IMG/VR virus record: IMGVR_UViG_3300034119_000831
Span: 1-34,359 of that record
Strand: one strand, 5' to 3'
Source of the DNA: a virus
Lineage: Duplodnaviria > Caudoviricetes
DNA: 34,359 nt
Made by a program: the position numbers and the translations under genes
Notes under the pieces: model-generated
Told to the model about the DNA's origin: nothing
The model's database searches: none
The model's input: only the letters and a program-made list of their open reading frames with translations
Shown: positions 1-28,158 of the stretch, one piece after another
Layout: each line of letters starts with the position of its first letter
How positions within the stretch are numbered: the first letter of the stretch is position 1

Positions 1-264
1 ACACCCCGACCCATACCCCTCCCACCCCGGGTTTTTGGAGATGGGGTATCCACGCGGCGTCCCGTCGCCCGAAGCCCCCTGCCCCCTCCGGGGTGCCGGG
101 ACGGTCGGGCCGAAACAAGGGATTCCTTGCCCCCCCCCCGGGGGGGCGGGTGGGCACGTCACGTGGGCGGGCGGGTGGGCGGGCAGGCACCCGGGCACGC
201 TACCAGGAAGGCACCCGGCCCGGTGGCGACCGCATCCTCGCCCCGGCGCCGGGCTTGGTGGGCG

Positions 265-866: not shown

Positions 867-1015
867 TTGACAAGCCCTCGAAAGTGTGCATTCCCCCCGA
901 TGCCCATAAGCACCACAAAAGATTTTTCACGCGAAAACGTGAGGAAAACCGCAGAAAACGGAGGTCCGCAGAAAAAAAGTGTGGACGTTTCTGGAAAGCG
1001 GTTTCTAATGGGGGC
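867..1015 (+). promoter_or_regulatory. Candidate early promoter region
   Basis: TTGACA 867-872; phased GAAAAC tracts at 933, 944, 954; A7 at 972-978; TGGACG(982-987)-16 bp-TCTAAT(1004-1009) just upstream of ATG 1016. Confidence 0.45.
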
Positions 1016-1222
1016 ATGGAACGAAACACGAAACGACAGGACGCCGCCCGGAGCGCATGGCGAGCGGCATGGAAATGGGCGCGCATATCCGGAGACCCTG
1101 AGAACAAGATTGAGGTCCTCGCCGTGGACGCGTGGGACGCTCGCCGCGCTGTGGATGCGTTGCGCATTCCGGTGCGGCGGCGGGCGGTCAACATGGAAAC
1201 CGAACCCCTCCCCCTGCCATGA
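1016..1222 (+). CDS. Small early protein (paralogue 1, ends PLPLP)
   Basis: In-frame ATG inside ORF 884..1222; ATGA overlap with next gene; shares motifs with 1219..1455. Confidence 0.7.
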   Translation: MERNTKRQDAARSAWRAAWKWARISGDPENKIEVLAVDAWDARRAVDALRIPVRRRAVNMETEPLPLP

Positions 1223-1455
1223 ACAAAAGAGGAACCGCCACAGCCCGCGCCCTATGGCGCATCGTTTGGGCGAATGTCCGTCACGAGGCCAAGGACGGCG
1301 GGCACCGGCCGACCCGAGGCGACCGCGCCCGCCGCGTGGCGCTGGACGCGTGGCACGCCCGCCGCGACGGCGTGCCCGGCGACCCGTGGCCCGGCATTCG
1401 CGGCCGGTTGCTCGCCACCGGATGGCGTCCGCTGCCGCCCCTCCCCCTGCCCTGA
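1219..1455 (+). CDS. Small early protein (paralogue 2, ends PLPLP)
   Basis: ATGA-coupled start; motifs ARxxWRxxW, A(V/L)DAWxARR and PLPLP shared with upstream gene. Confidence 0.7.
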   Translation: MNKRGTATARALWRIVWANVRHEAKDGGHRPTRGDRARRVALDAWHARRDGVPGDPWPGIRGRLLATGWRPLPPLPLP

Positions 1456-1489
1456 CACGCGCCGACCGGGAGACCGGGCGGCGAAGTCA

Positions 1490-1526
1490 GGGCCGGATGG
1501 TCCGGCCCGGAATCGAAAGGAACACA
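1490..1526 (+). repeat. Conserved early leader, copy 1 (8-bp stem, TGG loop, AAAGGA, AC-rich spacer)
   Basis: GGGCCGGA-TGG-TCCGGCCC at 1490-1508 followed by AAAGGAACACA-ATG. Confidence 0.65.
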
Positions 1527-1799
1527 ATGACGACAATCGCAAAGGTCGAGAAATGGAAGGCCCTCCGCCCCACGTGGCGCGTCGGCCAAGGACACTGGTT
1601 CATAGGATTCCACGCCGGGAACGTCCTTCACGGTTCCCGAGGGGCCGTGGGAATCTGGGGGAGGAACTCCCGCCAGTATGGGCGGGGGGATGTAATCTCC
1701 CCCAAGAGCGGTTTGTGGCAGGATGAGGAGATTGCCGGGTTTATCCCGGCCCAGCATGGCTCCGGCCTTATGGCGCGACTGATGGGAGGTGCGCGATGA
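1527..1799 (+). CDS. Hypothetical early protein
   Basis: AAAGGA RBS; MTTIAKVEKW...; 3' part of ORF 768..1799. Confidence 0.75.
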   Translation: MTTIAKVEKWKALRPTWRVGQGHWFIGFHAGNVLHGSRGAVGIWGRNSRQYGRGDVISPKSGLWQDEEIAGFIPAQHGSGLMARLMGGAR

Positions 1800-2056
1800 G
1801 GCTAACGAACACCGCACGGGAAACCGTGCTAACCCTACCCGGGTCCCGAGGCCCCCGCCTCACCGGGTTTTTGGACGGCCTGAAGGCCGCAGGCCGGGCA
1901 GTGGACGTGGCCGCAACCGAGGACGGCGCGGGGCGCTGGACCTATCGGGTCCGCTCGGGTGATGCGGAGACGGATTCCGCCGTGCGCGCCTATGGGGCTT
2001 CGCTCGGCGCGCGGGTCGGGGAGCAGGAACTCTTCGGGTGGGAGGTGGGGCGATGA
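1796..2056 (+). CDS. Hypothetical early protein
   Basis: GGAGGTG RBS, ATGA coupling. Confidence 0.75.
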   Translation: MRLTNTARETVLTLPGSRGPRLTGFLDGLKAAGRAVDVAATEDGAGRWTYRVRSGDAETDSAVRAYGASLGARVGEQELFGWEVGR

Positions 2057-2214
2057 GGCCCGCCGACTCCCCGCAGGCCGCCGAGTGGCGCGCCTGGCTG
2101 GCCGTGGTGTACGGGCCGTACCAGACGCCGGGGCGACTCCGGCGCATCGCGTCCCGGATGGCGGACGCCGGGAACAGGGAGGCCGCCCTCCGCTACGTGA
2201 GGGGGCTTCGATGA
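2053..2214 (+). CDS. 53-aa hypothetical protein (not in ORF track)
   Basis: MRPADSPQAAEWRAWLAVVYGPY...; GGAGGTG RBS; ATGA overlap at both ends. Confidence 0.65.
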   Translation: MRPADSPQAAEWRAWLAVVYGPYQTPGRLRRIASRMADAGNREAALRYVRGLR

Positions 2215-2474
2215 GGTCCACGAATCCGACCCGCCGCCCCCGGCCCATGGTGGCCCGGGTCACGATCGAGACGCTGCCCACCGGGGCCATGGTCGCCCGG
2301 GACGACGCCGGGGACGTCTGGGCCTACCGAGCTCCGGGCTCCGGCCGCGATGGCGCCCGGTGGATCCACGGCGCCGCGCGGAGGGTGGCGGCCGTGGTGA
2401 CGTGGGCCACATCGGCGGCGTGCGGGGCCACGGTGGCGGGGTTGCTGGCCGCAGGCGAGGGGGTGGCGCGATGA
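2211..2474 (+). CDS. Hypothetical early protein
   Basis: ATGA coupling at both ends. Confidence 0.6.
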   Translation: MRSTNPTRRPRPMVARVTIETLPTGAMVARDDAGDVWAYRAPGSGRDGARWIHGAARRVAAVVTWATSAACGATVAGLLAAGEGVAR

Positions 2475-2995
2475 AGACCCAATGGGGAGAGTGCCGTTTG
2501 GTGACGCTTCGGGAAACGCCCCCGGATTACATGGCCGACACACCCGACGGCATTGCGGAATACTACCGCCAAGCCATCGCATCGGGGCAGGATTTCCGGC
2601 CAGACCAAGAGGGATTCTGGACAATCATGCTAAACACCCGGCGGAGGGTGTTGGGCCATACCCTGGTGTCCTTCGGCATCGTGGACCAAGTGTTGGTTCA
2701 CACCCGGGAGGTCTTCCGGGCGGCAATCGTCGGAGGCGCGCACGCCGTGGTCCTTGTCCACAATCACCCGAGCGGCGACCCGACGCCGAGCGAGCCAGAC
2801 GTTGGAACCACGCGGCAGCTAGTGCAGGCCGGAAAGCTGCTGAAAATCGAGGTGCTGGATCACCTAATCATGGCCAGCGACTCCCCATGGGATGACGCGC
2901 GGGAGATGGTTGGCCCGGCACCGGACCCGACCAAGCCTCCAACGACGCGCCGCCGACGGTGGTACAGCCTTCGGGCGCTGGGTTACATTAACTAG
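2471..2995 (+). CDS. radC: RadC-like JAB/MPN domain protein
   Basis: E..W..MLNTRRRV, VHTREVFRAAI, HNHPSGDPTPSEPD metal motif, LLKIEVLDHLI; lacks the HhH N-terminus. Confidence 0.92.
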   Translation: MKTQWGECRLVTLRETPPDYMADTPDGIAEYYRQAIASGQDFRPDQEGFWTIMLNTRRRVLGHTLVSFGIVDQVLVHTREVFRAAIVGGAHAVVLVHNHPSGDPTPSEPDVGTTRQLVQAGKLLKIEVLDHLIMASDSPWDDAREMVGPAPDPTKPPTTRRRRWYSLRALGYIN

Positions 2996-3054
2996 GGTCA
3001 ATCGACGGTGGCCCGCCGATGGGAGCGGCGGGCGGCAGTCGGGGAATCCCCCGG

Positions 3055-3097
3055 GGTCCGGCATGGTGCCGGGCCGGAGAGAGAAGGAACACACACG
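3055..3097 (+). repeat. Conserved early leader, copy 2
   Basis: GGTCCGGCA-TGG-TGCCGGGCC at 3055-3075 then AAGGAACACACACG-ATG. Confidence 0.65.
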
Positions 3098-3571
3098 ATG
3101 AACACAGGAACGAACGAGACGAACCCGGCCACCCTGGCCGACATCATCCGCGCGCGGCGCGCGCGGAAGGGCAAGTCCAACGGCATAGACGCCAATGGCG
3201 CGTGGTGGTCGGCGTGGCCGAGTGGGCTCGACCCGCGAATCCGCGCCCATGGCAGCGACGGCATCGGGCACAACGCCGCGCGCACGATCACGACGCTCCG
3301 AGCGCGCCATTACCGCTGTGGCCGCGTGGTGGTCGGCGCGTGGTCTGAGAGCTGGCATCAGAATACCGGCCAGCAGGTGCGTTGGGTACAGATCGACGGG
3401 CTGGCCACGGCGACGACCGCCGAGGACGTCATCGCGACGCTGGCCCGGGCCGGGGATGAATGCTGGCGGGCGTGCCACCGGCCCGCCGTCGAGGCGTGGG
3501 CGGCTGAAATCGGGCTCCCGCTTGCCCCGGCCGCGCCGGATGACGCGCCTGAGGGCGTGGCCGCATCCTGA
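3098..3571 (+). CDS. Hypothetical early protein
   Basis: AAGGA RBS; MNTGTNETNPATLADII... Confidence 0.75.
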   Translation: MNTGTNETNPATLADIIRARRARKGKSNGIDANGAWWSAWPSGLDPRIRAHGSDGIGHNAARTITTLRARHYRCGRVVVGAWSESWHQNTGQQVRWVQIDGLATATTAEDVIATLARAGDECWRACHRPAVEAWAAEIGLPLAPAAPDDAPEGVAAS

Positions 3572-3608
3572 CCGGGTCCCGCCCCCCGGCTCCGGTCGGA
3601 GGGCGTGG

Positions 3609-3644
3609 CCCGGGCATGGTGCCCGGGATGAAAGGAAACACACA
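3609..3644 (+). repeat. Conserved early leader, copy 3
   Basis: CCCGGGCA-TGG-TGCCCGGG at 3609-3627 then AAAGGAAACACACA-ATG. Confidence 0.65.
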
Positions 3645-4019
3645 ATGAACACGCGAAAAATCGAAGAGGCGATGAGGCTTGCCCGGGCGCTCCCCGGATG
3701 GTCCATCCCGGATATCATCTTGGCGCGCAAGTGCGCGGGGAAACTCCATCGCGCCGACGAGGCGAAATGCAACGGCGACGCGTACCTGGACGACGAGACC
3801 GGAGCGTGGCGCGACCGCCACGGCAGGCCATGCAGGAACCCCTATGGGAGGGCGGCGAAGACGCTGGACAACATCACGGCAAGCTACGGCTGGACGTGGC
3901 ACCATCAGAGCGACCCGCGCGGTCGGTCGGTCTATCTGATGTCCCCGGAGCTGCTCCGGAGCATGAAGGCGCGCGGGGTGCCGGTGTATCATGGCTACAG
4001 CCAAGGGGTGGCGCTGTGA
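3645..4019 (+). CDS. Phage hypothetical protein (CNG...DPRG type)
   Basis: AAAGGA RBS; LHRADEAKCNG and QSDPRG motifs resembling a recurrent phage family. Confidence 0.75.
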   Translation: MNTRKIEEAMRLARALPGWSIPDIILARKCAGKLHRADEAKCNGDAYLDDETGAWRDRHGRPCRNPYGRAAKTLDNITASYGWTWHHQSDPRGRSVYLMSPELLRSMKARGVPVYHGYSQGVAL

Positions 4020-4318
4020 GGGCGACACACACCCCGGGGCCGTGGTGGCTCCGACCTGGGAACGGATGCGTCCACGTCGGAGGGCCGACGATCGACAAGC
4101 AAATCGCCCTCGTGATGACGTGCGATGCCGTGGGGCTGGCCAACGCCCGATTGATCAGCCGCGCGCCGGAGATGCTGGACGCCCTGGCCGCGTGCGTTGC
4201 CGCCGGGGAGGATCTGCAGGCGGGCAAGCGCGACGGCGCGACGATGGGTCGTGTGAGTCTGGCGACGGACGCCGCGCGGGCGCTGCTGGCCTTCATCCGC
4301 ACGGAGGCCAAGCCATGA
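4016..4318 (+). CDS. Phage protein with HTPGPW...ANARLI..APE(M/L)L motif
   Basis: GTGA-coupled start; widespread phage early-gene motif. Confidence 0.8.
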   Translation: MRATHTPGPWWLRPGNGCVHVGGPTIDKQIALVMTCDAVGLANARLISRAPEMLDALAACVAAGEDLQAGKRDGATMGRVSLATDAARALLAFIRTEAKP

Positions 4319-4728
4319 CCCTCTATGTTGACCCCAGCCAGCTCCCGGGCCATCGGGTGGCCATCATTCAACCCGTCCCCAAGGGCACGCTCCGCGCGGG
4401 CATGATCGGGGGATCGCCCGTGTCCGCCCTGTCCCTGGACGGGCAAGCCGGGTCGGCGTGGGGCGTGGGGAAAACAGTGCTTTTCGGCCGGTACATCATC
4501 CAGCTACCCGGCTGCGACGACAACCCGCAGGCCCGCGCGGGCCGGTACGTTCACGCCATGCGTTTCCCGGGCACGCTGGACGCATCACGCCTAGGCCACC
4601 TCGCCCGGCGGACCATCGCGGCGACCGGCCACGCCCACGCTTGCGCGCTCGAGGTGGCCGCGACCGAGCACGCGGCGGAGATCGCCGAAATCCTGGACAG
4701 GACCCCGCCGGAGCCTGGCGTTGTTTGA
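4315..4728 (+). CDS. Hypothetical protein
   Basis: GGAGG RBS, ATGA coupling, MTLYVDPSQLPG... Confidence 0.7.
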   Translation: MTLYVDPSQLPGHRVAIIQPVPKGTLRAGMIGGSPVSALSLDGQAGSAWGVGKTVLFGRYIIQLPGCDDNPQARAGRYVHAMRFPGTLDASRLGHLARRTIAATGHAHACALEVAATEHAAEIAEILDRTPPEPGVV

Positions 4729-4796
4729 CGACGTGGCGCGCGCCGTGACAGGACGCGCGCCCAGTCGGGAATCAACCCGAGGAAGGAAAGGAAGAC

Positions 4797-5024
4797 ATGA
4801 AATTCATCGTTACGTTCGCCACCAACGACAAGATCGAGTTGGCCACCATCACCCGACGCAAGGGAGCGATGAGGCTCAAGCGCCTGAAGCCAGCGCAGGC
4901 CCTCGGGTATCACATCCCAGCCTCCAACGACCGCGAACTTGAACGGTGCGCTGACTATCTCTCCGCAGAGACCGCCGCAATTTCGGCGACGTGCATAGGC
5001 TACCGCGTCCACAAGCTCGCCTGA
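4797..5024 (+). CDS. Hypothetical protein
   Basis: AAGGAAAGGAAGAC-ATG RBS. Confidence 0.75.
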   Translation: MKFIVTFATNDKIELATITRRKGAMRLKRLKPAQALGYHIPASNDRELERCADYLSAETAAISATCIGYRVHKLA

Positions 5025-5069
5025 CCATCCGCCCCGCGCCCTCCCCATGGGAAACCGTGGGGAGCACGC

Positions 5070-5105
5070 GGGCCGGATGACCTGGCCCCGAACGAAAGGA
5101 AAACC
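5070..5105 (+). repeat. Conserved early leader, copy 4 (degenerate)
   Basis: GGGCCGGATGACCTGGCCC at 5070-5088 then AAAGGAAAACC-ATG. Confidence 0.55.
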
Positions 5106-5456
5106 ATGCCGAAGAAAACCACACCCGAGACCGAACCCACCCCCGAGGCCACCCCCGAGCTGGCCCCAGCCCCCGAGGCGACCCCGTCCGCCGTCTCCGA
5201 GGCCGCCGCCGCCCTGGGCAGGCGCGCCCGTGGCGTCCCGAAGACGCTCACGGAGGAACGGCGCGAGGAACTCCGCGCCGCCGCCGCCCACGCCCGAGGC
5301 TTCCGGGTGCGCGCACGCCCGGCCCCCGAGGCCACCCCGGCCCCCGATGCCGCGCCACAGCCCCCGACGACGGGCCGCCGGATCACCGCGCGCGTTGTCG
5401 CCCCGCGCATCGTGGCCCCGACCCCCGGCGACGTCGCCGCGTTCGGTCGAGGCTGA
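5106..5456 (+). CDS. Pro/Ala-rich hypothetical protein
   Basis: AAAGGA RBS; PEATP repeats; AAAALGRRARGVPKTLTEERR basic helix. Confidence 0.7.
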   Translation: MPKKTTPETEPTPEATPELAPAPEATPSAVSEAAAALGRRARGVPKTLTEERREELRAAAAHARGFRVRARPAPEATPAPDAAPQPPTTGRRITARVVAPRIVAPTPGDVAAFGRG

Positions 5457-5457
5457 T

Positions 5458-5520
5458 CCGGTCGCCCGCGCGATTCCCGGTCGCCCGCGCGATTCCACGT
5501 TGACAGCACCGGTCGCCCGC
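5458..5520 (+). repeat. Direct repeats CCGGTCGCCCGC(GCGATTC)
   Basis: Two exact 19-bp tandem copies (5458-5476, 5477-5495) plus a 12-bp copy at 5509-5520. Confidence 0.85.
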
Positions 5521-5528
5521 ACTACCGT
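5500..5528 (+). promoter_or_regulatory. Sigma70-type promoter
   Basis: TTGACA(5500-5505)-17 bp-TACCGT(5523-5528). Confidence 0.65.
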
Positions 5529-5534
5529 CGGGCT

Positions 5535-5594
5535 TGTTGGATTGTGTTGTTCGTGTGTTCAGCCCGCCCTCGCAAGGGGGCGGGTTTTCCTTTT
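5535..5594 (+). ncRNA. Candidate ~60-nt G/U-rich small RNA
   Basis: Lies between a promoter and an intrinsic terminator; no credible ORF; unstructured GU-rich 5' part. Confidence 0.5.
5561..5594 (+). terminator. Rho-independent terminator (+)
   Basis: AGCCCGCCCTC-GCAA-GGGGGCGGGTT stem with GNRA loop, followed by TTTTCCTTTT. Confidence 0.8.
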
Positions 5595-5613
5595 CCGGGT
5601 GGAACCCGGGCAC

Positions 5614-5643
5614 GAAAAAGCCCCGGGCCACGCGACCCGGGGC
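5614..5643 (-). terminator. Rho-independent terminator (-)
   Basis: On the minus strand GCCCCGGG-loop-CCCGGGGC then TTTTT, downstream of gene 5674..5868. Confidence 0.75.
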
Positions 5644-5673
5644 CGACGCCCGCCACCTATGCAAGGCTGGCGT

Positions 5674-5868
5674 CTAGGATGTTCGGCGGCGCTTGCGGGC
5701 CTGCGAGAACCCGTCCTCGCCGCGTTCCTGGCGGATCTCGAAGGCGGTTTCGTTTCCGGTCCGCTTGGCCCACGCGCGGAATGCGCGGTCGAAGCGAGCC
5801 TTGTCCGCGCCGGTCCAGCGCACGTCCCCGGCCTCGTCCCAGGCGGTCTTGATGGATGGGCGGTTCAT
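5674..5868 (-). CDS. Hypothetical protein, last gene of the minus-strand operon
   Basis: GAGG RBS; followed by terminator. Confidence 0.65.
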   Translation of the reverse strand: MNRPSIKTAWDEAGDVRWTGADKARFDRAFRAWAKRTGNETAFEIRQERGEDGFSQARKRRRTS

Positions 5869-5912
5869 GGTTGTGGCGCCTCGTCGTCGATGCGGCGTGG
5901 GCGGCGGCTCAT
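5865..5912 (-). CDS. 15-aa bridging mini-ORF MSRRPRRIDDEAPQP
   Basis: ATGA overlaps at both ends; GGAGG upstream. Confidence 0.4.
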   Translation of the reverse strand: MSRRPRRIDDEAPQP

Positions 5913-6478
5913 GGCTTCATCCTCCTGAACTCGACGGCCCAAACCCACGGGTTGGCGGCCCATGTGCCGTAGATGGATTGCCAGAGGTCGTTAAAGCCCT
6001 GCCTGAACGACATCACGCACGGATCGTCAAGGCATCCGGTCGTCGTTGGCGCGCCTTCATTGAATGCGTTTTGGTCCGTGATGTCATGCACCCGCTCAAC
6101 CCAAACGCGGGTGATCTCCAGCGTGATGCGCGAGGCCCAGCGGGGCATGTGGATGGATGGACGCCAGCGAAAGGCGGTTCCGGGTTGCGTTTGCAGTTCG
6201 CGCAAGTCGTTATCGGCACGGTAGCAACAACCATGCGACTGATGCGGATTAAATGGAGCCCACGTCTCCCGCACCCAAAGCCTGTCGCCGGGCTGGCCGA
6301 GGGGGCACAGAAGCGACGCCTCCTTGAGTAGGCCACGACCGAGGATGTTGAGCACCTGCCCCGGCTCCTCGCTACCCCTCAGGTGATGAGGCTTGACCGG
6401 CCGCCGCGTCTGCGTCTTCCGCCCGTCGAGAATGGAGCGGACCATGTCGCCACTGAATAGGATGGGGCGCTCTTTCAT
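5909..6478 (-). CDS. ASCH/PUA-like phage protein
   Basis: MKERPILFS..MVRSILDGRKTQTRR, CPLGQPGDRLWVRETW, WRPSIHMPRWASRITLEI, NPWVWAVEF. Confidence 0.9.
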   Translation of the reverse strand: MKERPILFSGDMVRSILDGRKTQTRRPVKPHHLRGSEEPGQVLNILGRGLLKEASLLCPLGQPGDRLWVRETWAPFNPHQSHGCCYRADNDLRELQTQPGTAFRWRPSIHMPRWASRITLEITRVWVERVHDITDQNAFNEGAPTTTGCLDDPCVMSFRQGFNDLWQSIYGTWAANPWVWAVEFRRMKP

Positions 6479-6735
6479 ACCCTGCCTCCCATCTCCGCCA
6501 ACCACGAATGCCTGGCGGCGTTGGCTTGCGCGCGCGGTGTCCCGGCCCGCCACTCCCCAAACTGCATTTCGTGGTGCATGGCGTTGCCAGCGGCCTCCAG
6601 CCTCCGGATGCGCTCGTTGGCGGCGGCGAGCTCGCGCTCCAGGTCGCGGGCGAAGTGTGATCCGACAACCGAATACCGTCCGCCTTCGCTCAATATCCAT
6701 CTTTCCTGGTCATCCGTCCTTGGCGTGTCGCTCAT
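6475..6735 (-). CDS. Phage hypothetical protein (MSDTPRTD...FARxLERELA)
   Basis: GGAGG RBS, ATGA coupling, recurrent phage motif. Confidence 0.75.
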   Translation of the reverse strand: MSDTPRTDDQERWILSEGGRYSVVGSHFARDLERELAAANERIRRLEAAGNAMHHEMQFGEWRAGTPRAQANAARHSWLAEMGGRV

Positions 6736-7004
6736 GGCTTGGCCCTCCTGGTCATCCTCCCGCCCCTGCATTCCCCGCGCGCCACGGCGCGAGAGACGTG
6801 CTTATAGACGGTGTTGAGGTGGCGTCCCGTAGCATCGGCAATGTCCTGCAATGCCATGCCCCCGTTCCGCATGGCGACGATGCGGGTGACGTCCTCGTCT
6901 GACAGCGGTGCGATGCGCCCGCGAGGATTGGATGGTGGGGCCTTTGGCATCATTTTGGCGACCGTCTCGCGGCGCGGGATGAGGGCCTTGAGGGCGGGGT
7001 TCAT
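6732..7004 (-). CDS. Helix-turn-helix DNA-binding protein
   Basis: LSDEDVTRIVAMRNGGMALQDIADATGRHLNTVYKHV. Confidence 0.8.
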   Translation of the reverse strand: MNPALKALIPRRETVAKMMPKAPPSNPRGRIAPLSDEDVTRIVAMRNGGMALQDIADATGRHLNTVYKHVSRAVARGECRGGRMTRRAKP

Positions 7005-7324
7005 TGGCTCGCCTCCTTCCACGCCTGGACGAGCTGGCGCGCGGTCTGGCCCCGCGTGTCCTCGGCGACGTGGCGCGCGAGGGCGTTCCCGGCGGCGCGC
7101 ATTTCTATGGCGGCGCTAGCGGCCTCGTATGCCCTTCGGATGGCGCTCTGTGCCCCTTGGCGCTCCGTGTCCAGCTCCGCCACGCGGTCGCGCATGGCCT
7201 TGTTCTCGGCCTCCAGCTCCGCGACGCGGGCAGCGAGGCCCTTGTTCTCTGGCTCCAATGCAGACAGGCGGAGCCTCATGGCCTCCACGTAGGCCGTGGA
7301 GAATGTCCCGTAGATTTCACTCAT
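7001..7324 (-). CDS. Coiled-coil hypothetical protein
   Basis: ATGA coupling; RVAELEAENKAMRDRVAEL heptads. Confidence 0.7.
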   Translation of the reverse strand: MSEIYGTFSTAYVEAMRLRLSALEPENKGLAARVAELEAENKAMRDRVAELDTERQGAQSAIRRAYEAASAAIEMRAAGNALARHVAEDTRGQTARQLVQAWKEASQ

Positions 7325-7869
7325 CGCGCACCCCCCATCTTGCGCGCGCGCTCCCAGTCCGGCGTCGCGTTGGCGCGGAGCCACGCGGCTTGCGCGTCCC
7401 ATGCGGCGTCCCGTGCGGCGGCCCGTGCGGCGTCCCGTGCGGCGGCCCCTGCGGCGGCCCGTGCGGCGTCCCATGCGGCGGCCCATGCGGCGTCCCGTGC
7501 GGCCCATGCGGCCCATGCGGCCCATGCGGCCCCTGCGTCCCATGCGGCGTCCCGTGCGGCGGCCCATGCGGCGTCCCGTGCGGCAGCAAGCTCCTCGTCG
7601 GTGGCGAGCCCGTCCGCATGACGCTCGGCAACGTCGAGCACGGCTAGGCTTCGCGGGTCGGTCATGAGGTGCTGGACCTGGCGAGCGGACCATGCCGAGA
7701 ATCGACGCAGCGCCAGGTCGTCCAGCACGCCCTTCCGCGTCGCGATCCAGACGAGCCAGTCCGGCCGCGCGTTCGCCCACGCCTCGCCCATGTCTTGGCA
7801 GTTGGCCAGCGCCCACTCGCGGCCCGCGTAGCATGGGTCAGTGAGGTCGCAGAACTCGGCTGGGCTCAC
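7321..7869 (-). CDS. Ala/Trp-repeat protein, paralogue B (Imm5-like region)
   Basis: GTG start coupled to upstream stop; DPRS..LDVAERHADGLATDEEL followed by AAW/AAR/DAA repeats. Confidence 0.8.
   Translation of the reverse strand: MSPAEFCDLTDPCYAGREWALANCQDMGEAWANARPDWLVWIATRKGVLDDLALRRFSAWSARQVQHLMTDPRSLAVLDVAERHADGLATDEELAAARDAAWAAARDAAWDAGAAWAAWAAWAARDAAWAAAWDAARAAAGAAARDAARAAARDAAWDAQAAWLRANATPDWERARKMGGAR
7395..7585. repeat. 9/12-nt coding microrepeat array
   Basis: Units such as GCGGCCCAT, GCGGCGTCCCGT, GCGGCGGCCCAT. Confidence 0.9.
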
Positions 7870-8426
7870 TTGGCACCCCCCATCTTGCGCGCGCGCTCCC
7901 AGTCCGGCGTCGCGTTGGCGCGGAGCCACGCGGCTTGCGCGTCCCATGCGGCGTCCCGTGCGGCGTCCCGTGCGGCGGCCCGTGCGGCGTCCCATGCGGC
8001 GGCCCATGCGGCGGCCCATGCGGCGGCCCATGCGGCGGCCCATGCGGCCCATGCGGCCCATGCGGCCCCTGCGTCCCATGCGGCCCCTGCGTCCCATGCG
8101 GCGTCCCGTGCGGCGGCCCATGCGGCGTCCCGTGCGGCAGCAAGCTCCTCGTCGGTGGCGAGCCCGTCCGCATGACGCTCGGCAACGTCGAGAGCGTGCG
8201 TGCTGCGCGGGTCGCGCATCAGGTGCCGCACTCGACTGGCCGAGAACACCGCAAACCTGCGCAACGTCCTGTCATCTAGCACGCCCGGCCTCGTCGCGAT
8301 CCACACGACCCATTCCGGCCGCGCCTTGCCCCATGCCTCTCGCATGTCGCGGCAGTTGGCCGACGCCCACTCGCGGCCCTTAGGGCATGCGCGGTGGCGG
8401 TCGCAGAACTCGGTGATGGTCATCAT
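7866..8426 (-). CDS. Ala/Trp-repeat protein, paralogue A
   Basis: GAGGAGGG RBS; same architecture as 7321..7869. Confidence 0.8.
   Translation of the reverse strand: MMTITEFCDRHRACPKGREWASANCRDMREAWGKARPEWVVWIATRPGVLDDRTLRRFAVFSASRVRHLMRDPRSTHALDVAERHADGLATDEELAAARDAAWAAARDAAWDAGAAWDAGAAWAAWAAWAAAWAAAWAAAWAAAWDAARAAARDAARDAAWDAQAAWLRANATPDWERARKMGGAK
7940..8140. repeat. 9/12-nt coding microrepeat array (second copy, different unit order)
   Basis: Same units as 7395-7585. Confidence 0.9.
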
Positions 8427-9716: not shown

Positions 9717-10747
9717 TTGGCACCCCCTTTCAACGCCCGCGCCTTCCCGAGCGCCCCGAGGAACCCGACCTGGCTCTTCATCAGGCTCGCGTCATGCTCG
9801 GCGCTCAACGCCGACGGCGGCTGGTTCTTCTCGATGAACCCCTGCTCCCGCAGGTAGTCCGTGACCTCCTGCATGGTGAACCCCTTGGACGTGGCGAGCA
9901 TGACGGAATCGGGCACGGCATCGTCCTCCACGACCGTAACGGCGACCGCCTTGGTCGGCGGCTCGCCTGCGGGCTGCTCCACCTCGGGTCGCTCCGCCTC
10001 GGGCTGCGGCTCCGGCAAGGCCGGCCTCTGGGGCCGCTCGAACGCGGCGGCGGCGGTCTTCGGCGTGACGTCGGTGGGCTCGTCCTCCAACCGCTCGGCC
10101 TCGGCGAACTCCGGGGTGAGGGGGAGGACCTTGGCCAGCCGCTTGAACGCGGTCTTCTTGGCCATCTCGTTGAAGTCGGTGTCCCACGGGGACTGCTTCG
10201 ACCCCTTCTTGGACCGCGCCCGGATAGCCTCAACCTCGGAGCGCGGAAGGACGACGCAAGCCTCGCCGCCCCCGGCCATCTTGGCGATGGCGTACCACGC
10301 ATACGCCTCGCCACGTGGCGAGCGCCAGTCAACCGTGTGGCGCGTGATGACGCCACGGTCCCACTGGAAGTCGTCGTTCTCGCAGACGGTCTCCAGCGTG
10401 ATCGCGGTCACGAGCTTGGACTTCAACGCGAGCTGGATGAGCCCCTTGTAGTCGGGGACCAGCGTGCAGATTTTCTTGTCCCCATCCCGGAACGGAACGA
10501 GGTGCGCGTGCCGACCGTCGAGGGTCAGCCCCAGTTGGACGGCCTGATAGACCGCCGACAGCACGCTCTTCGGCGTGCATTCCGCCAGCCCGGGGGTGCG
10601 GGCAATGGACGTGACGACCATGCGCGCAACGCGGTCCGCCCCGACGGCGTCCCCGACGATGCGCGCCAGCTCCCGCTTGAACTCGGGGGCCTCAACCGCC
10701 GCCTTAACGGACAGCGGTTCCTTCTCTGCCTTGGCAATGTTGCTCAT
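9713..10747 (-). CDS. recT: RecT-family single-strand annealing recombinase
   Basis: LAECTPKSVL.AV..AVQLGL, AHLVPF, YKGLIQLA, VCENDDF, SPW.TDFNEMAKKT.FKRL.K.LP. Confidence 0.92.
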   Translation of the reverse strand: MSNIAKAEKEPLSVKAAVEAPEFKRELARIVGDAVGADRVARMVVTSIARTPGLAECTPKSVLSAVYQAVQLGLTLDGRHAHLVPFRDGDKKICTLVPDYKGLIQLALKSKLVTAITLETVCENDDFQWDRGVITRHTVDWRSPRGEAYAWYAIAKMAGGGEACVVLPRSEVEAIRARSKKGSKQSPWDTDFNEMAKKTAFKRLAKVLPLTPEFAEAERLEDEPTDVTPKTAAAAFERPQRPALPEPQPEAERPEVEQPAGEPPTKAVAVTVVEDDAVPDSVMLATSKGFTMQEVTDYLREQGFIEKNQPPSALSAEHDASLMKSQVGFLGALGKARALKGGAK

Positions 10748-10784
10748 GCGTCATCACGGGACCATATCCGTGAAGACGCGTCAA
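10748..10784 (-). promoter_or_regulatory. Inverted repeat and candidate promoter abutting the recT start
   Basis: GCGTCATCACGG(10748-10759)/CCGTGAAGACGC(10768-10779), 11 of 12 matched; TTGACG on the minus strand at 10784-10779; no SD. Confidence 0.5.
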
Positions 10785-11063: not shown

Positions 11064-14000
11064 TCAGTATCCGAACATCTCCTTGGCCGTGCGGTTTCGG
11101 ATGCGCTCGGTTTGCTTGTCGATGAACGCCGCCGCCTCGGCCTTTGGCATGGTGGTGAGGTCGAAGCGGTTCTCCATGACGAACTCGCGATAGGCGCGGC
11201 CGACGGCCTTCTGGAACCGATGCTCCTCGGCGGGCGTCATCTCGCGCCGGGTGCCGTCCTCGTTGACGACCATGCGCTTGCCGATGGTGGGGAGGAAGAC
11301 GCCCTTGGAGGCGAGGGTGCCGAGGGTTTGCCACGCGGCGTCGTCCTTGCGTGCGGTGATCCAGCGGGACCACGGGTAACGCTCGATGGCGACGGGCTCG
11401 CCGAGGACGTTGAGAACCGGCCCTGGCCCGACGGTGCGCCGCAGGAAGGGCACCTGCTGGACGAAGTACTCACCCCCGGTCTGGGCCTTGAAAATGGACG
11501 GCTCCGACCACGCATCGACCTCCTTCAGGAGGTTCGGCACGAACGACCCGGCCAGCCGCGAGAAGTAACGCGGAAGGCGCTTCTCGATGATTTCCTGCGA
11601 GTCGTACTTGTAGGCGTTGGACGCCCCCAGGAACTCGGTCAACCCGGAGATGGCCGTGGAGTCCGTGACGACGAGCAAGCCCGCCGCCGCCGCGTCCGCC
11701 CACTTCTGGTAGATGGCCTCCTGGTCCCATTTCTCGCGCTCGAAGAGCTGCCGGTCGCGCAGCTCCCCGATGACCCCGAGGATGGAACCGAATCCAAACT
11801 GCCGGTACGAGTAGTACTTGTCCCCGACGCGCACGGAGTAGGGCTTGCGGCCCTCGGCGAGGAGCTGCTTTCGCTTCTCGGGCGTGAGGCCCTTGAACGA
11901 CCCCGTGATGTCTATGGTTCGGTCGTCCTCGTCGTCGTCGTCCCCGAGGAACAGGGTCGCCGCGAACGCCCCGAGGGCGGCGCCGATCCCAGCCTTGGCC
12001 ACGAGGAGCCTGCGCTCGATGGGCCGGTATTCCTCGGCCAGCCTCCCGCCTGGGCGACTCAGCATCCACCGGACCATGGCCGGGGCCACCATGAAGTCCG
12101 AGTAGTCGTTGAACATGTTGGTCGCGAACCGGAGGAACCCCGTCCCGAGGGCCAGCTTCGAGACGAACCCGGCGCCGCTCTTGGTGGCGAGCCTGTCCTC
12201 CGACCGGGCCATGCGCTCCGACAGTCGGTACACCATGCCCGCGAAACCCTTTGGCATGTTGGTGTAGTTCATGGCCTTCATGAGCGCCTGCGCGTCGAGG
12301 ATGACCTCGGCCGGAAGCTGCTGCTCGAGGATCTCGCGCACGCGCGCCTTCATGCGGTCAGGCTGCGTGCCCTCGTTTTCCGCCGTGGTTCGCGCGTCGG
12401 CCAGGTCCTTGGCCGTGGGCGTCAGGAACCGATTGATGGCGGCCTCGTTCTCGGTCCGCGCGAGGGCATCGACCAACCCCGCCCGGTAGGTGCCGAGGCC
12501 GTTGAGGTGGTCCAGCGCGGACATGATCCTAGAGACGTACTTCAGGTTGGAGATGACGCGCGCGAAGGCGTTGCGCGAGTTGGCGAGGGCCTCCAGCGCG
12601 TTGGGCGCCCGCTCCCCGTCCCACGCCTTGGACTTCCAGACGTCGTTGCGGAGGAGGATGGGGAAGAAATCCCCGGCCGCATCGGCGACGCCGCTCCCGT
12701 ATGCCTTGAAGAAGTCGAGCTTCCGGGGCGTGGCGAGCCCCAGCGCGGCGGTCTTGATGAACCCGTTGATGACGTTCATCCCGCCGTCCACCTGCGTCCG
12801 TGTCCCGGACAGCACGCTTGCGTACCAGTAGTCCTGGATGACGTCGCCCCACCGGACCCCGCCCACCTCCTGGATGCGGCGGTACATGTCCATGAGGATG
12901 CGCTTGCGGTTCTCCCCGCCCACGGCCTGCGCCTGCTGGGCCATGTCGGTGATTTCCTGGACGATGCCGGAGTCCAGCGAGGCGACCCCGAAGAACGGCG
13001 CCACCGCGTCCCGGAAGTTGGCATCGTCGAGAACCCCGAGGTTGGCCCACTTGAGGATGCGCGGGAAGGCGTTGACGAGGGCCTCCTGCGTCTTCTTGTT
13101 GGCCTTGGGTGCGACGTACTTCGCGATCTCGCGCTTTGCAATCTCGTCGCGCTTGGCCTGGAACTGCCGGCCGAGGAGGTTCGCCAGCTCGACGCGCGCA
13201 GGGTCGGGCATCCTGCTGAGGATGGGGTGGGCGAGGATGGAGTCGTAGATGGCCTGATAGACGTTGCGCTGAACCTCCAGCGAGGACTCCATGATCTCGC
13301 GCCAGTTGATGCCCATGTCCCGGGCGGTGCGGTTGAACACCCGCTTCACGAGGTTGTCCGGCTGCGAGGTCTCCCGGAGGATTTCCTCCACGACCCGGCG
13401 CCGCACGCCCTTGAGCCACTCGCGGATTTCCTGGCTGTTGATCTCCGGGAACGGAAGCCTGCGCTGCCGCTCCTTGATGAGGTTCAGCAGCGTGAGCATG
13501 GGGTTGAGGTAGGAGTACCGGGCCTGCGCGAGGTTGATGGCCCCCAGCTCGCGGCCCGCCTCCGTGGCGTTGGCGCTGTACGCCTTCGCCGCGCGGGGCA
13601 GGAAGTTCCCGAGGATCCACTGCGCCACGGCCGCGTTGGGCGAGGTCTTCGCCGCATTGCGGGCACGCGCCATGATCTCCAGCATGACGTAGTTCCGCGC
13701 CCCCCGGTTGTCCATCCCGAGGTCCGGGTTCCCCGACATGGCATCGGACAGGGCCGCCTCCAGGTCCGACCCGTAGGCGTCCACCCACCTGACGGCCTCG
13801 GCGTGGACCTGCTCGTCGGTCATGGTCTCGTACCGACCCTTGAACAACCCCTCGGAGCGCGCGGTCCTGCCGGTCCCGGGCATCTGGAACTCGGGCGGAG
13901 GCGTCGGCGCCCCGGGGCCATCCCCGGCCTCGGCCCGTGCGCGCCCAGCGGCGCGGTCGAGGCGGTCGATGAACCCGCCCATCTCCATGAGGTCCACCGC

Positions 14001-17000
14001 GTCCTGGTCGTCGGGGACGTACTGCTCGAAGTCGATCCCTGCCTTGGCGTGGTCCCAAGCCTTGGAGACGAGCCCGTTCAGGCGCACCCCGGCCATGCGC
14101 GCCAGGTCGGCGGCGGACTGGGCGCCGACCTTGATGGCCGCCTCGGCGAACTTGTAGAGGGCGGCATACACCTTGAACTGGAGGCGGATGGTCTCGCGCG
14201 GGTCGGCGCGAATGCCCATCTTCTGGGCCTCGTTGGAGTAGTTCGTCCAGGCGGTCTTGAGGTTGTCGAGCGCCTCGCTGACGGGGCCTTGGGTGGGAGT
14301 GACTATCTGGACCGGCTTCGCTGCTCCATATTTCTCAATCCAGTTTGCCGGAAGGAAGAACTCCTTGTCGGGTCGTCTGGAGTAAAATGCTGGATTGTCC
14401 TTGGCTTCTGACGATTTGGATCTTGGGATGTTTGACACTCGGAACTGCTCAACTTCCGATGCCGGAACATCAACATAGACCACTTGGCCATCTGGATATT
14501 CCTTCTCCAAATACCACTTCGCCTCTTCCAAATCGTCCGTGAACCATCGACCTTGCGAGGACACGGTGTTTTGAAATTGGACATCGCTTGCAATCCATTC
14601 AGGGGTTGGCCCCTTGGATCTTTGAAAAGGTTGAGCCCTGTAAAGCCTAACCGTGCCAGCCGTCGCCGTTTCCCCCTCCTCCCCCACCGTGTCCATCTCC
14701 TCGCCGATGTTGAAGTTGGCGATGTCCATGGTGACCTTCGGGACCTCGCCCCGAACGAGCGAGCCCATGGACTGCATCCGCTGCCCCACGCGCCCGGCGA
14801 GCGAGCGGTCGAGCTCGGAGTCCTTGACGAAGAGCCAGTTGATCCGGGCCACGCCCTTGAGCCCGTAGCGCGCCGACCGCTGCGTAACCTGCGTGACCTT
14901 CGAGGCCGTCCACGGGAGGATGATGTTGACCTGGGTGGTTGGGTGGTTGCCAACCCTGTCATGCAGGGACAGCCCGGTCCCGCCCTTGGCCATCGTCGCA
15001 ACGAGGACCATGGGCCTGGGTGCCTGCCTCCACCGCGCCAGCTCCCGTTGGGCGCCCTTCTCGGTCTCGGAGCCCGTGAAGATGGCCGTGTTCTCCGGCC
15101 CGAAGGCTTCCTTGAGCACGTCCTCCATGGCGGGCAGCTCGATGGAGCGGTTGCCCGTGGCGTTCATGTACGCCTCGAAGATGGCAACCGCGCCCTTCGG
15201 TGGGAGCCCATAATCCGCCCGCTTCGGAGGCGTGTCTCGCATGCTCTGCGCCATGGCCTTGGCGGCGAGAAACTCCCGCTCCTTCTCCAGGATCTCCGGG
15301 ATGTTGTAAATTCGCTCCGACCGCGTCTCCAGGAAGATGATGGGCCACCGCCCCTCGGCCATGGCCTGCCGCGCCATGTCGATTCCAGCCTGCACCTTGC
15401 CGTACTCCAGCAGGCGCTTGCGGAACATCTTGAGCCACTTCTGGGTGTTCCCGAAGTCGAAGTCCGTGGCGGTCGCCTCGGCCACCCTCTCGATGTCGTC
15501 CAGGATCTTCCCATACTTCGGGTCGATGGGGACCGGAGTGAGGCTGGTTTCGATCTGCTCCAGGGGCAGGCGCATGGGCCGTTGCACGAAGATGCCCAGC
15601 TTGCGCATGTAATCGCGCCCAGCCTTGGCGTCCTCCATGAACGTCTGGGTCTGGTCCCAGTCCACCGCGAAGATTTCACCGGAGGCATCCCGCTTGACCG
15701 TGGCCCCGAAGGCCGCCGCGAAGTTGAGGAACCCGCCCACCTCGTCGAAGACCCCCGTGCCTGCGACGTACTCCATCTGCGTGGGGTCCTCGTAGGGCGT
15801 TGCCGAGGCCATGATCGTGAACTTGGCCTGCCGCATCCACATCTGCGCCGTGGACCCCTGCTTCGCGTCGCGCGAGTGCTTGACGTAGTGAGCCTCGTCG
15901 AAGACCAGCGCGTCGGTGTCCCGGGGTGGCGTCTCCCGGAACTTCGCGTAGGTCATGAACTCGATGTCATCGACGCCGAACTTGGCGAGGTCCTCCTTGG
16001 CCTGGCGGATGAGGTCCTTGTTGGGCGTGACCCAGACGATGCGACGCGCTCCCTTCCTGCGAAGCTCGCGGATGGCCCCGCCGAGCACGAAGGTCTTGCC
16101 CGTGCCCGCGTCGTTGCCCAGCAGGAACAGGCGGCGCCCGTTGGCGTGGGCGCGGGCGATGGCGCCGACGTCCTCGACCTGCTCGTTGACTACGTTTTCA
16201 GGAATACCCTGCGCGATCCCGGCCCGTAGTAGTCCTGCGGTGTCGGCGGACACAGACTCCCGAAGCACGCGAGGATCTCCTGATTCGTCGGGTCGTCCGT
16301 CAGCTCGTTCCCGGATTCCTCGTAGCTTTGGATCAGTCTTGTGAGACGCGACTGGGCGCTGGGAGCCATCGCCGCCTTCCGAAGCCTTTGGAAGTATCTC
16401 TCGGAGGGCATTGAGCGAATCTCGTCCAAACTCCCATCTTCGGAGGGGATTATTCCATCTGCCGCCCGCACGCGAGAGGGATTCCTTGAGCTTGCGAGTC
16501 TCACCCGTGACTGCGTAGGCAGGGCCTTTGCTGGTTTCATAGAGGAACGCGATCTGGAGCTTGTTGCCCTTGAGGTTGGAAAGCAGGTCCGACGGCACGG
16601 CCCGGGCCAGCACCTTGCGCATGGCCTCGGGCGTCTCCATCCCGGCGTCGATTTCAAACTGCCCCGTGGCCGGGTTCAGCCGGGCGGTCCCGTCGTTGAG
16701 GTAGTTGTCGAAGAGCGTGCCCGCCTGGGACTCGTTGAAGCCATTGGCCATGGCGACCTCGACGAACCGGACGCGCCCGGTCTTGGGCTTGCCGGGAGGC
16801 GGAGGCGGCGTGGTCGGCGGCGGCGTTGGAGGCGGCGTTCCGCCACCCCCGCCCGGAGGCTTGTCGATGTCCGCGATGATGGCCCGGGCCTGCGACGGCG
16901 TGACCTCCTCGGCGTCGTCCACGCCAACGATGGCGCTGTTCCAGAAGCTTGCGAGGTGAGGCTTGAGGCGTTCCCACAAGTCCGGGGCCTTGGACTTGAC

Positions 17001-26319: not shown

Positions 26320-26361
26320 CTTGCGGGCAGCATCCCATGCTGGCTACCATGCGGCAAGATG
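26317..26361. promoter_or_regulatory. Symmetric divergent control region
   Basis: CATCTTGC/GCAAGATG inverted repeat including both ATGs; internal CAGCAT-CCC-ATGCTG; TACCAT 8 nt before ATG 26359. Confidence 0.55.
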
Positions 26362-28158
26362 GAAACGACGCCGGGGGCGGAAGCGCGGCCGCACACCGAC
26401 CTGAAATGGGGCACCACGGACGAGTTCCAGATCCACGCCGCCATGATGCGGGCGGGCGGGTACAAGGAGTTCAACGGGGTTCGCTACGGCGGGGGCATGG
26501 CGTTCCACACCAAGGGGGCCATGAAGGCCCTGTGGCCATGGCTCGACTGGCACCTGTGGTCGGAGCTTCTGGTGAAGTCCTTCTCGGAAAACAACGAGGT
26601 GGGCGTCATGGGGCCGGGATCCTCCGGGAAGACGTTCATCGCCTCGGCGTGGGCGCTCTGCCAGCTCTACGTCTGGCCGCAGGGAACGACCGTCATCATT
26701 TCGACGACGACGCGCGAGGGTCTCCAGTTGCGCGTGTGGGGATCCATCAAGGAACTCCACAAGAAGGCCAAGGCCCGCCGCGCGTGGCTCCCGGGCAAGG
26801 TCCACGAATCGCGCTACGCGCTGGCCACCGGCGCGGACCCGGACGCGGAGCCCGGCGAGGGCGTGGACTTCCGGGACGGCATCATCGGCGTCGCCTGCCG
26901 CGTCGGAGGGCAGTTCGTCGGCATCTCGAACTACGTCGGCATCAAGAACGACCGCATCATCCTCGTGGCCGACGAGGCGTCGCTCATGCCCCGCGGGTTC
27001 CTCGACGCCGTCCCGAACCTGCGCAAGAACCCCGTGTTCAAGCTCATCGCCCTCGGCAACCCCAAGGACCGCACGGACGCACTCGGGGTCGTGTGCGAGC
27101 CTGCCCCGGAGGCCGGGGGGTGGGATGGCCTCCCCTACGAGGAGAAGACCCGCACATGGAAAACCCGGGCCACCGGGGGAATCGCCATCCAGCTCTGCGG
27201 CTACGACACGCCCAACGGCCGGTATCCCAAGGGCCTCAACCCATTCAAGGGCATCATCACGCCGGAGCAGATTGACGCCGACCTCGCCTACTACGGCCGG
27301 GACTCGCTCCAGTTCGCCATGATGAACCTGGGCGTCATGCCCCGGGACGGCGGCTCGCGTCGCATCATCACGGCCACGCTCTGCGAGGAGAAGGGGGCCT
27401 TCGAGGAAGCCGTCTGGTCGTCGGCCGACCGCATGACCCGCGTGGTGGGGCTCGACGCCGCCTACTCCGGAATCGGGGGCGACCGCTGCGCCCTCATCCC
27501 CCTCGTCTTCGGGCCGAACCGAGCGGGGGCCAGCATCATCGCCTTCGACGGCGCCCCGGTCATCGTGCCCGTGGACGTGCGCCTGCCCGTCGCGCCCGAG
27601 GAGCAGATCGCCAGGTTCGTCATGGAATGGGCCACCACGCGCGGCATCCCGCCCGAGAACGTCGCCTTCGACTCCACCGGCCGGGGCACGCTCATGTCCG
27701 CGTTCGCCCGCCTCTGGTCCACGGCCGTCGTCCCCGTCGAGTTCGGCGGCAAGCCCTCCGACCGCCCGTGTCGGCCAGGGGATCCCAAGACCGAGATCGA
27801 AGCCTACGACCGCAAGGTCACGGCCCTGTGGTACTCCACGCGCATGGCCGTCGAATCCCGGCAGGTCCGCGCCATGCCCCGCGAGGTCGCCGAGGAGGGC
27901 GCCCTCCGCGAATGGGGCGTCGGGAAGTCCGGCAAGGTTGAGGTCGAGCCCAAGTGGAAGACCAAGGAACGCATGGGCCGCTCGCCCGACCTCTATGACG
28001 CATGGGTCGTGGGCCTCGAAGTCGCGCGGATGCGGGGGTTTTCCATTGCCTCGGGGGCCGCTCCCGGTATTGTCAAGACACGGGTGCCTTCATGGCTGCA
28101 ACGTATGCACAAGGATGCCCGGAACACGCGAAGGGGAATGGAGTTGATTCATGGCTAG
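26359..28158 (+). CDS. terL: Terminase large subunit
   Basis: Walker A GPGSSGKT, Walker B IILVADEAS, LGNP coupling motif, nuclease VVGLDAA, FDSTGRG and RSPDLYDA. Confidence 0.9.
   Translation: METTPGAEARPHTDLKWGTTDEFQIHAAMMRAGGYKEFNGVRYGGGMAFHTKGAMKALWPWLDWHLWSELLVKSFSENNEVGVMGPGSSGKTFIASAWALCQLYVWPQGTTVIISTTTREGLQLRVWGSIKELHKKAKARRAWLPGKVHESRYALATGADPDAEPGEGVDFRDGIIGVACRVGGQFVGISNYVGIKNDRIILVADEASLMPRGFLDAVPNLRKNPVFKLIALGNPKDRTDALGVVCEPAPEAGGWDGLPYEEKTRTWKTRATGGIAIQLCGYDTPNGRYPKGLNPFKGIITPEQIDADLAYYGRDSLQFAMMNLGVMPRDGGSRRIITATLCEEKGAFEEAVWSSADRMTRVVGLDAAYSGIGGDRCALIPLVFGPNRAGASIIAFDGAPVIVPVDVRLPVAPEEQIARFVMEWATTRGIPPENVAFDSTGRGTLMSAFARLWSTAVVPVEFGGKPSDRPCRPGDPKTEIEAYDRKVTALWYSTRMAVESRQVRAMPREVAEEGALREWGVGKSGKVEVEPKWKTKERMGRSPDLYDAWVVGLEVARMRGFSIASGAAPGIVKTRVPSWLQRMHKDARNTRRGMELIHG

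Follow-up and report, generated by a model that had tools for sequence, protein, structure and literature searches.

The locus examined here raises the question of whether a tailed phage carries, at the point where its rightward and leftward genes meet, a gene for a small RNA, and whether such an RNA could turn down the phage's own early genes, a step that is poorly known beyond a few models in phages that use the host polymerase. The window, that is, the whole stretch of DNA analysed, is a tailed-phage record of 34,359 bases (IMGVR_UViG_3300034119_000831) with a G+C content of 67%; at least 80% of the words sampled from its positions 1000-6500 were present in eight lake-water sequencing runs, of which four are marked as possible sources. 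Small rightward genes, a RadC/JAB gene included, extend from about 1016 to 5456. Leftward genes run from about 26,300 down to 5674 and encode RecT, an exonuclease VIII-like protein, an HTH protein and a 3256-aa helicase/ddrB-ParB protein, with a terminase-like gene (22% identity) next to them at 26359. The unit under study sits in the 217-base gap between the two sets.

Several neighbouring genes have features of their own. A promoter-like site seen by eye (983-1018) ends in TCTAAT about 6 nt 5' of the ATG at 1016, which suggests that this first early gene is leaderless; CCGCAGAAAA is present twice just 5' of the same site (also by eye). The RadC-like JAB gene (2471-2995) lies among the early cassettes, is skipped in some relatives and shows about 3% divergence in one relative, compared with 8-14% for the genes around it. 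The last early protein (5106-5456) contains an ALGRRARGVPK motif that is invariant, or nearly so, in 20 homologues; the same motif occurs in a tiny frame (5040-5132 of contig L002) before a terminator-like hairpin of an otherwise unrelated phage. On the leftward side an HTH gene with PHROG matches (E about 1e-5) is located at 6732-7004. Two tandem paralogous genes with AAWAAA/AARDAA repeats follow at 7321-8426 (minus strand), their DNA repeats being 219-300 nt long and 83-94% identical. The 3256-aa protein (11064-20834, minus strand), with ddrB-ParB and helicase-like domains, is presumably a DarB-like injected protein.

An earlier note, made from the sequence, had proposed that a TTGACA-17-TACCGT promoter points into the gap. 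We identified the -35 hexamer TTGACA at 5500-5505 and the -10 hexamer TACCGT, in which T1, A2 and T6 are kept, at 5523-5528, both on the plus strand, separated by 17 nt and unchanged in four of four relatives. No other TTGACA-16..18-TAnnnT arrangement occurs on the two strands of the window, 60 shuffles of the whole window contained 0.05 on average, and shuffling the intergenic stretch produced the pattern in 4 of 20000 trials; a stock promoter scanner passed over the site because its -10 scores 3/6. From the spacing, the transcription start site is predicted at 5534-5536. The region also contains three identical 12-bp boxes, starting at 5458, 5477 and 5509, which the earlier note had not mentioned. 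The first two belong to two 19-bp direct repeats (5458-5495, plus strand), each composed of the box CCGGTCGCCCGC and a TCGC-N4-GCGA palindrome, whereas the third (5509-5520, plus strand) falls within the promoter spacer and is unchanged in all four relatives; the first copy of the 19-bp repeat has two changes in one of the four. The number of such boxes in the window is at chance level, and it is their clustering within 63 bases that is notable. The repeats and boxes may represent an operator for a regulator of the unit's promoter.

The promoter is followed by a tract at 5536-5561 (plus strand) in which 24 of 26 positions are G or U, more than in any other 26-mer of the window, and which bears out the description of some 26 nt of G/U-rich sequence. 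It would form the largely unpaired 5' part of the predicted RNA and varies at 5545, 5547 and 5561, while the 13 nt that adjoin the terminator (5548-5560, plus strand) are identical in the window and four of four relatives and make the best candidate seed. The predicted GNRA terminator was found as an 11-pair hairpin at 5561-5586 with a GCAA loop and the tail TTTTCCTTTT, the whole element spanning 5561-5594 on the plus strand. Its folding z-score is -3.0, and none of 200 shuffles was equally stable. The stem (5562-5585) is the same in four of four relatives, so it offers no compensatory change. This is the first strong terminator 3' of the rightward early genes, after 5456. Beyond it lie a variable spacer hairpin (5596-5607), which marks the 3' limit of conservation with distinct indels in each of the four relatives, and the convergent terminator of the leftward genes (5619-5644, minus strand), which would halt minus-strand transcription ahead of the unit.

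The tract's setting differs between the predicted short RNA and a read-through transcript. With both alleles the core is unpaired to a mean of 0.66 in the short RNA vs 0.38 in the 3' end of a read-through early mRNA, where it is predicted to fold back onto the promoter sequence; an internal promoter would therefore free the core. That the unit lacks an ORF is true of ATG starts only: frames beginning with TTG and GTG are present at 5534 and 5544, and they extend through the terminator. Both are shifted by a 1-base deletion at 5545 in four of four relatives, and a coding frame was rejected on account of this indel. With its own promoter, an intrinsic terminator and no conserved ORF the unit has sequence attributes of a trans-encoded base-pairing sRNA. 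The opposite-strand gene overlap of cis-antisense phage RNAs was not found, the nearest leftward gene ending at 5674. A type I antitoxin was likewise rejected (no overlap, and a 64-aa neighbour that by eye is not hydrophobic), as was a CRISPR-repeat mimic (no Rfam CRISPR match). Across 107 sequences, together 1.1 Mb, 214 terminator-like hairpins were counted, of which only 3 were preceded by a G/U-rich 22-mer, and a promoter was present in addition only in the window's unit; these sequences comprise the window and 106 loci, partly redundant and mostly chosen by a promoter-plus-GTGTGTTC pattern.

Conservation was analysed in contigs of relatives from 5 of the 24 runs listed, none of them an RNA run, as two sets of four with three runs common to both; the pieces shown for the fifth run cover just 5562-5904. 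The unit was present in four of four runs, originating from four studies. Apart from the hexamers, the third box, the core and the stem, 5536-5544 is also unchanged in four of four relatives, which are close, about 10% apart. All four have the 1-base deletion at 5545, T>A at 5547 and A>C at 5561; C>A at 5589 and A>G at 5521 occur in one relative each, and every relative has its own indels at 5598-5607, just 3' of the U tail. In each of two flank-spanning contigs 4 of 141 positions differ in 5456-5596. Four coding pieces of the first contig together differ at 141 of 1294 positions (p 0.001 by Fisher's test), a count from which its radC piece (22 of 710 differing), conserved as much as the unit, was excluded; coding pieces of the second differ at 46 of 536 positions (p 0.018). 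The stretches 5400-5456 and 5608-5672, which include the last codons of the 5106 gene and the convergent terminator, are as conserved as the unit. Since the rest of 5400-5672 and the radC piece are equally conserved, block exchange may add to the signal, while one recent sweep is argued against because the indels in the middle of this stretch differ between relatives.

More distant relatives were sought in several collections. Among the viral contigs, a single RecT query, the seed pattern and a 757-aa protein gave no match each; an alignment search with RecT found six distant loci (28-39%), one with the 5106 protein two loci whose common feature was the short motif alone, and one with the 3645 protein a single weak locus. 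The promoter-plus-core pattern occurred at 86 viral loci, none of them related, and the leader pattern in two unrelated phages. A metagenome scan had one motif-only locus among the matches listed, genome contigs gave four matches, all without promoter-terminator context, and annotated phages four short ones, the best of which follows a stop codon by 5 nt in an unrelated podovirus and was attributed to a resemblance between terminators.

Thus, promoter, tract, terminator and conservation in relatives make a small RNA of about 58 nt, produced by the unit at 5500-5594, likely, and we consider it probable that this RNA is functional. The small-RNA part of the earlier proposal is well supported by the unique promoter, the strong terminator, the retention of the unit in four of four relatives and the indels that begin just past the U tail.

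The second part of the question concerns the targets. It had been pointed out that four early genes carry a conserved hairpin leader, and hairpins do precede the starts at 1527, 3098, 3645 and 5106. In these leaders (1490-1530, 3055-3100, 3607-3647 and 5069-5108) a G/C hairpin with an AUGG(U)-type loop is followed by AAAGGAAC. The GGCATGGTGCC hairpin leader also heads genes in two unrelated phage contigs, L097 (8248 and 7997, minus strand) and L098 (8001-8031), in the latter directly after a promoter-like site. The short complementarities listed in the earlier note are exact for three of these genes: 5541-5548 (ATTGTGTT) is complementary to 1521-1528, ATTGTGT (5541-5547) to 3640-3646, and 5551-5558, 5553-5560 and 5554-5561 to 3091-3098, 3087-3094 and 3099-3106 of the 3098 leader. 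The 11/11 match of 5583-5593 to the ribosome-binding site of the 5106 gene (5095-5105, plus strand) is exact as well, and falls outside the seed: the terminator supplies all of it, four bases coming from the 3' arm of the stem and the rest from the U tail. It was rejected as a target site, being also broken by the C>A change at 5589 in one of four relatives. As a conserved feature the ATTGTGTT match was rejected, as it is lost in four of four relatives, and the ATTGTGT match to the 3645 leader is lost in all four too.

Pairing was evaluated as duplex plus opening energy with ViennaRNA, our own approximation and not IntaRNA, over regions -35 to +20 of 40 gene starts, which were hand-chosen and some of which are uncertain. 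For the whole tract the ranking was recT and 3098 (both -17.7 kcal/mol), 1527 and 6735 (both -14.1), 28151 (-13.8), 3645 (-12.7), 5868 (-11.9), 1016 (-11.5) and 5106 (-10.1, ninth of 40). The site at the 3098 gene (3087-3106, plus strand) covers the ribosome-binding site to codon 3 and was, at -17.7 kcal/mol with accessibility, the best of the sense-strand scan; 53 of 170 dinucleotide shuffles were as good. The start region of the 1527 gene (1520-1542, plus strand) gave -14 to -15 kcal/mol, and -13.5 with the relatives' allele, whereas that of the 3645 gene (3637-3663, plus strand) gave -12.7 with 11 contiguous core pairs from codon 1. A candidate that the earlier note had not named is the recT start (10731-10752, minus strand), with 16 contiguous pairs, five of them G-U, and about -17.5 kcal/mol; none of 170 dinucleotide shuffles was as good, a result that is not significant after correction because this is the best of 40 starts tested. 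A site 29 nt 5' of the 28151 gene (28122-28133, plus strand) gave -13.8 kcal/mol, or -13.6 with the relatives' allele, and was equalled by 1 of 170 dinucleotide shuffles.

The comparison of pairing energies with shuffled sequence, which had been proposed both as a check and as a way to refute the idea, went against it with dinucleotide shuffles and not with base shuffles. For the four leaders together (-53.1 kcal/mol) base shuffles reached -35.1 (3 of 170 as good), while dinucleotide shuffles reached -54.0 (92 of 170 as good); dinucleotide shuffles were as good in 88 of 170 cases for the 13 early starts and in 34 of 170 for the best five starts. Because such shuffles pair equally well, the signal resides in the UG/GU make-up and not clearly in the exact order of bases. 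A signal at the dinucleotide level is expected of a low-complexity seed like that of GcvB R1, yet chance would also give it.

When the relatives' allele was paired with the window's leaders, dinucleotide shuffles were as good in 35, 21 and 34 of 250 cases. The sites at 1527, 3098, 3645 and 28151 keep -12.8 to -13.6 kcal/mol, and for 1527, 3098 and 3645 taken together equal values were reached by 19 dinucleotide and 2 base shuffles out of 250 each. The same allele brings 5106 down to -6.5 and recT from about -17.5 to -10.8 kcal/mol, for which reason recT was rejected as a conserved top target. With the C that the relatives have in place of A at 5561, the predicted duplex reaches the GGA within the ribosome-binding site. 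As regards covariation of seed and target, the core is invariant in the four relatives and their leaders are seen as fragments. GGAACAC is kept in the leaders of two relatives and changed in two, according to an ambiguous back-translation of read-through translations, and an exact 11-nt complement is present in the leader of one relative's contig, though this contig is not the one that carries the unit and has a tenth of its depth.

The core, 5548-5560, was chosen by conservation alone. Exact 7-mer complements were found in 6 of the 40 start regions (1016, 1527, 1796, 3098, 3645 and 8426), or 5 of the 13 early ones, and at one other sense-strand site. With base shuffles 1.4 fell at starts and 10.0 elsewhere (p 0.005); with dinucleotide shuffles, of which 60 were distinct, the values were 2.9 and 6.9 (p 0.06-0.08). 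For 6-mers and 8-mers dinucleotide shuffles gave p 0.08-0.64, within a total of 18 combinations of word length, allele and shuffle type. When hexamers are ranked by enrichment at starts, four complements of the core (ACACAC, AACACA, GAACAC and ACACGA) are in the top 18, while the seed's 5' end, represented by the final four hexamers of the complement, matches once at starts and 28 times elsewhere. With a share of 6.7% of the sequence, start regions hold 8 of the 20 best sense-strand sites, compared with 3-8 in 18 dinucleotide shuffles and 0-5 in 18 base shuffles. The claim that one sRNA is aimed at the four early genes is only partly supported: the core does point to start regions, early ones above all, better than base shuffles but not clearly better than dinucleotide shuffles, and the match to the phage's own start regions is only modestly better than chance.

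A further comparison was made with the unrelated phage L097. One of its ten start regions paired with the RNA at -24.3 kcal/mol, better than any of the window's own, the other nine at -3.7 to -11.5. No comparable RNA unit was found in this record, which is 71% complete, though hairpin-AAAGGAAC leaders are present; A/C-rich leaders thus need no sRNA to explain them.

The early region itself is mobile. Relatives gain, lose and swap whole early genes within 1021-5095, several times at leaders, with joints at 1509>1795, 2449>2995, 2449>4729, 3122>3589 and 4786>5095. From the position of these joints, cassettes may be exchanged by recombination at the leaders.

Considering these data together, the phage's own early genes are the leading, if unproven, targets, and the pairing model suggests that acting on them may well be the RNA's main job, a tentative reading that we stop short of calling probable. 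The host sigma-70 polymerase would start near 5536 and stop at about 5590, and the primary RNA of about 58 nt would use the terminator of the early operon and expose its 13-nt seed beside the stem. The core would then pair with GAACAC-type words at the ribosome-binding site, the start codon or the first codons of the 3098, 1527 and 3645 genes, more weakly of 1016 and 1796, and perhaps of recT and 28151, and translation would be lowered. Accumulation of a stable RNA could act as a delayed brake on the early cassettes, and the three 12-bp boxes would possibly time the promoter. In its most extended and speculative form, which we regard as possible but doubtful, this would be an RNA-run switch from early to later expression, in which a box-gated promoter frees a seed otherwise hidden in the 3' end of the early mRNA and silences interchangeable hairpin-leader cassettes through their GAACAC start words; the unit might have arisen from an inverted leader cassette and be one of a wider, unrecognised class of anti-leader RNAs. 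Such a switch would correspond, at the RNA level, to the RegA/RegB shut-off of phage T4. If this is true, one trans-acting RNA directed against a shared start word would regulate any cassette swapped behind the common leader, and regulation of this kind suits the early region because relatives reshuffle it.

Alternatively, the RNA might be aimed mainly at mRNAs of the host, or of a competing phage, its seed being a generic anti-start device for host takeover and the matches to its own genes a by-product of shared A/C-rich starts. Indeed, a foreign start region gave the best pairing found (-24.3 kcal/mol), the signal is a matter of dinucleotide composition rather than of precise base order, and a near-consensus host promoter would fire alongside the early genes. 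Phage sRNAs that act on host genes have been described, PreS on dnaN and DicF on ftsZ according to the available part of a review (PMC12197685). Complements of the core are, however, scarce elsewhere in the sense strands and gathered at early starts, and on this modelling we consider the host-directed reading rather unlikely. It is also unlikely that the unit is mainly the terminator of the early operon, preceded by a G/U stretch that binds a protein or controls decay, the RNA being a decoy, a primer or a by-product that acts without base pairing. A terminator is needed here anyway, this being the first strong one after 5456, the three 12-bp boxes and two palindromes suggest binding at the DNA level, the convergent terminator and the last 5106-gene codons are equally conserved, and dinucleotide shuffles pair equally well. 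A plain terminator, on the other hand, has no use for a conserved promoter 60 nt upstream or for an invariant unpaired 13-mer, and G/U-rich tracts ahead of terminators are rare (the 3 of 214 mentioned above).

The DNA of the gap could also act as a replication origin or RNA-primer site, with the 19-bp repeats as iterons, a T-rich strand that unwinds and a promoter that activates or primes; layouts of this sort may resemble T7- and lambda-type origins. Two tandem repeats and a partial third do lie beside a promoter where opposed transcription units meet. The tract, though, is just 15/26 A+T, there are only two full repeats, of which one is degenerate in a relative, and no initiator was recognised among the proteins scanned, the window being possibly part of a longer genome (a 49,994-base contig has the same proteins), so that we rate an origin as quite improbable. 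Least probable is a functionless relic, a decayed, inverted or minus-strand gene leader, which the earlier note had named among the outcomes that would overturn its proposal. Read on the minus strand, the unit is a hairpin followed by an A/C-rich tract, as in the leaders, the reverse complement of a leader in L097 passes the same G/U-plus-hairpin filter, and leaders are reshuffled in relatives. Nevertheless, neither an ATG nor an AAGG-type site occurs between the minus-strand hairpin and the tract, a terminator stands upstream on the minus strand, promoter and U tail are both oriented towards the plus strand, and conservation exceeds that of coding sequence. A decayed leader is therefore unsupported as the present state of the unit, while an inverted leader is plausible as its origin.

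In Rfam nothing came near a gathering score: GcvB, presumably accession RF00022, was not among the 11 matches at E up to 5, nor among the four at E up to 1. The Betaproteobacteria toxic sRNA (RF02278) and anti-hemB (RF02837) families were rejected, their scores of 21.5 and 18.1 bits being far below the respective gathering scores, 50 and 49.5; the 5' end of their alignment derives from the promoter spacer and the remainder falls on the terminator. Their resemblance lies in size (57-92 nt in the part of PMC4603805 available) and in the terminator end. No described case was found in the literature covered, which took in few subscription journals and left out a review's table of 38 phage sRNAs whose function is undescribed. 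OOP, sar, aQ, 24B_1, VpdS, PreS and DicF are similar in that they are short, are encoded by phages with a promoter or terminator of their own, and target mRNAs of the phage or the host (PMC12197685; bioRxiv 10.1101/2024.10.31.621285, each in its accessible portion); according to the same portion of the former, OOP, sar and aQ are antisense to one gene each, and PreS and DicF act on host genes. None of these phage sRNAs is described in the accessible portions of the two sources as using a GU-rich seed to act on several early starts of its own phage (PMC12197685; bioRxiv 10.1101/2024.10.31.621285). In position the unit is like the Vibrio cholerae sRNAs OppZ and CarZ, which come from 3' UTRs and repress the operon that encodes them; as far as the available text of PMC7398697 goes, those are cut out by RNase E, whereas the unit has a predicted internal promoter and several dispersed start regions as putative targets.

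The closest comparison is with GcvB, and the unit is probably a GcvB-like multi-target phage sRNA, not GcvB itself. GcvB is about 200 nt long, whereas the unit is phage-borne, about 58 nt long and has its seed directly before the terminator; its predicted targets are phage genes, those of GcvB amino-acid transport genes. In the accessible part of PMC3879156, GcvB R1 is a conserved, unstructured GU-rich region that pairs with CA-rich sites at or near the ribosome-binding sites of many mRNAs, and the core of the unit resembles it in being conserved (five alleles), GU-rich and unpaired to a mean of 0.66.
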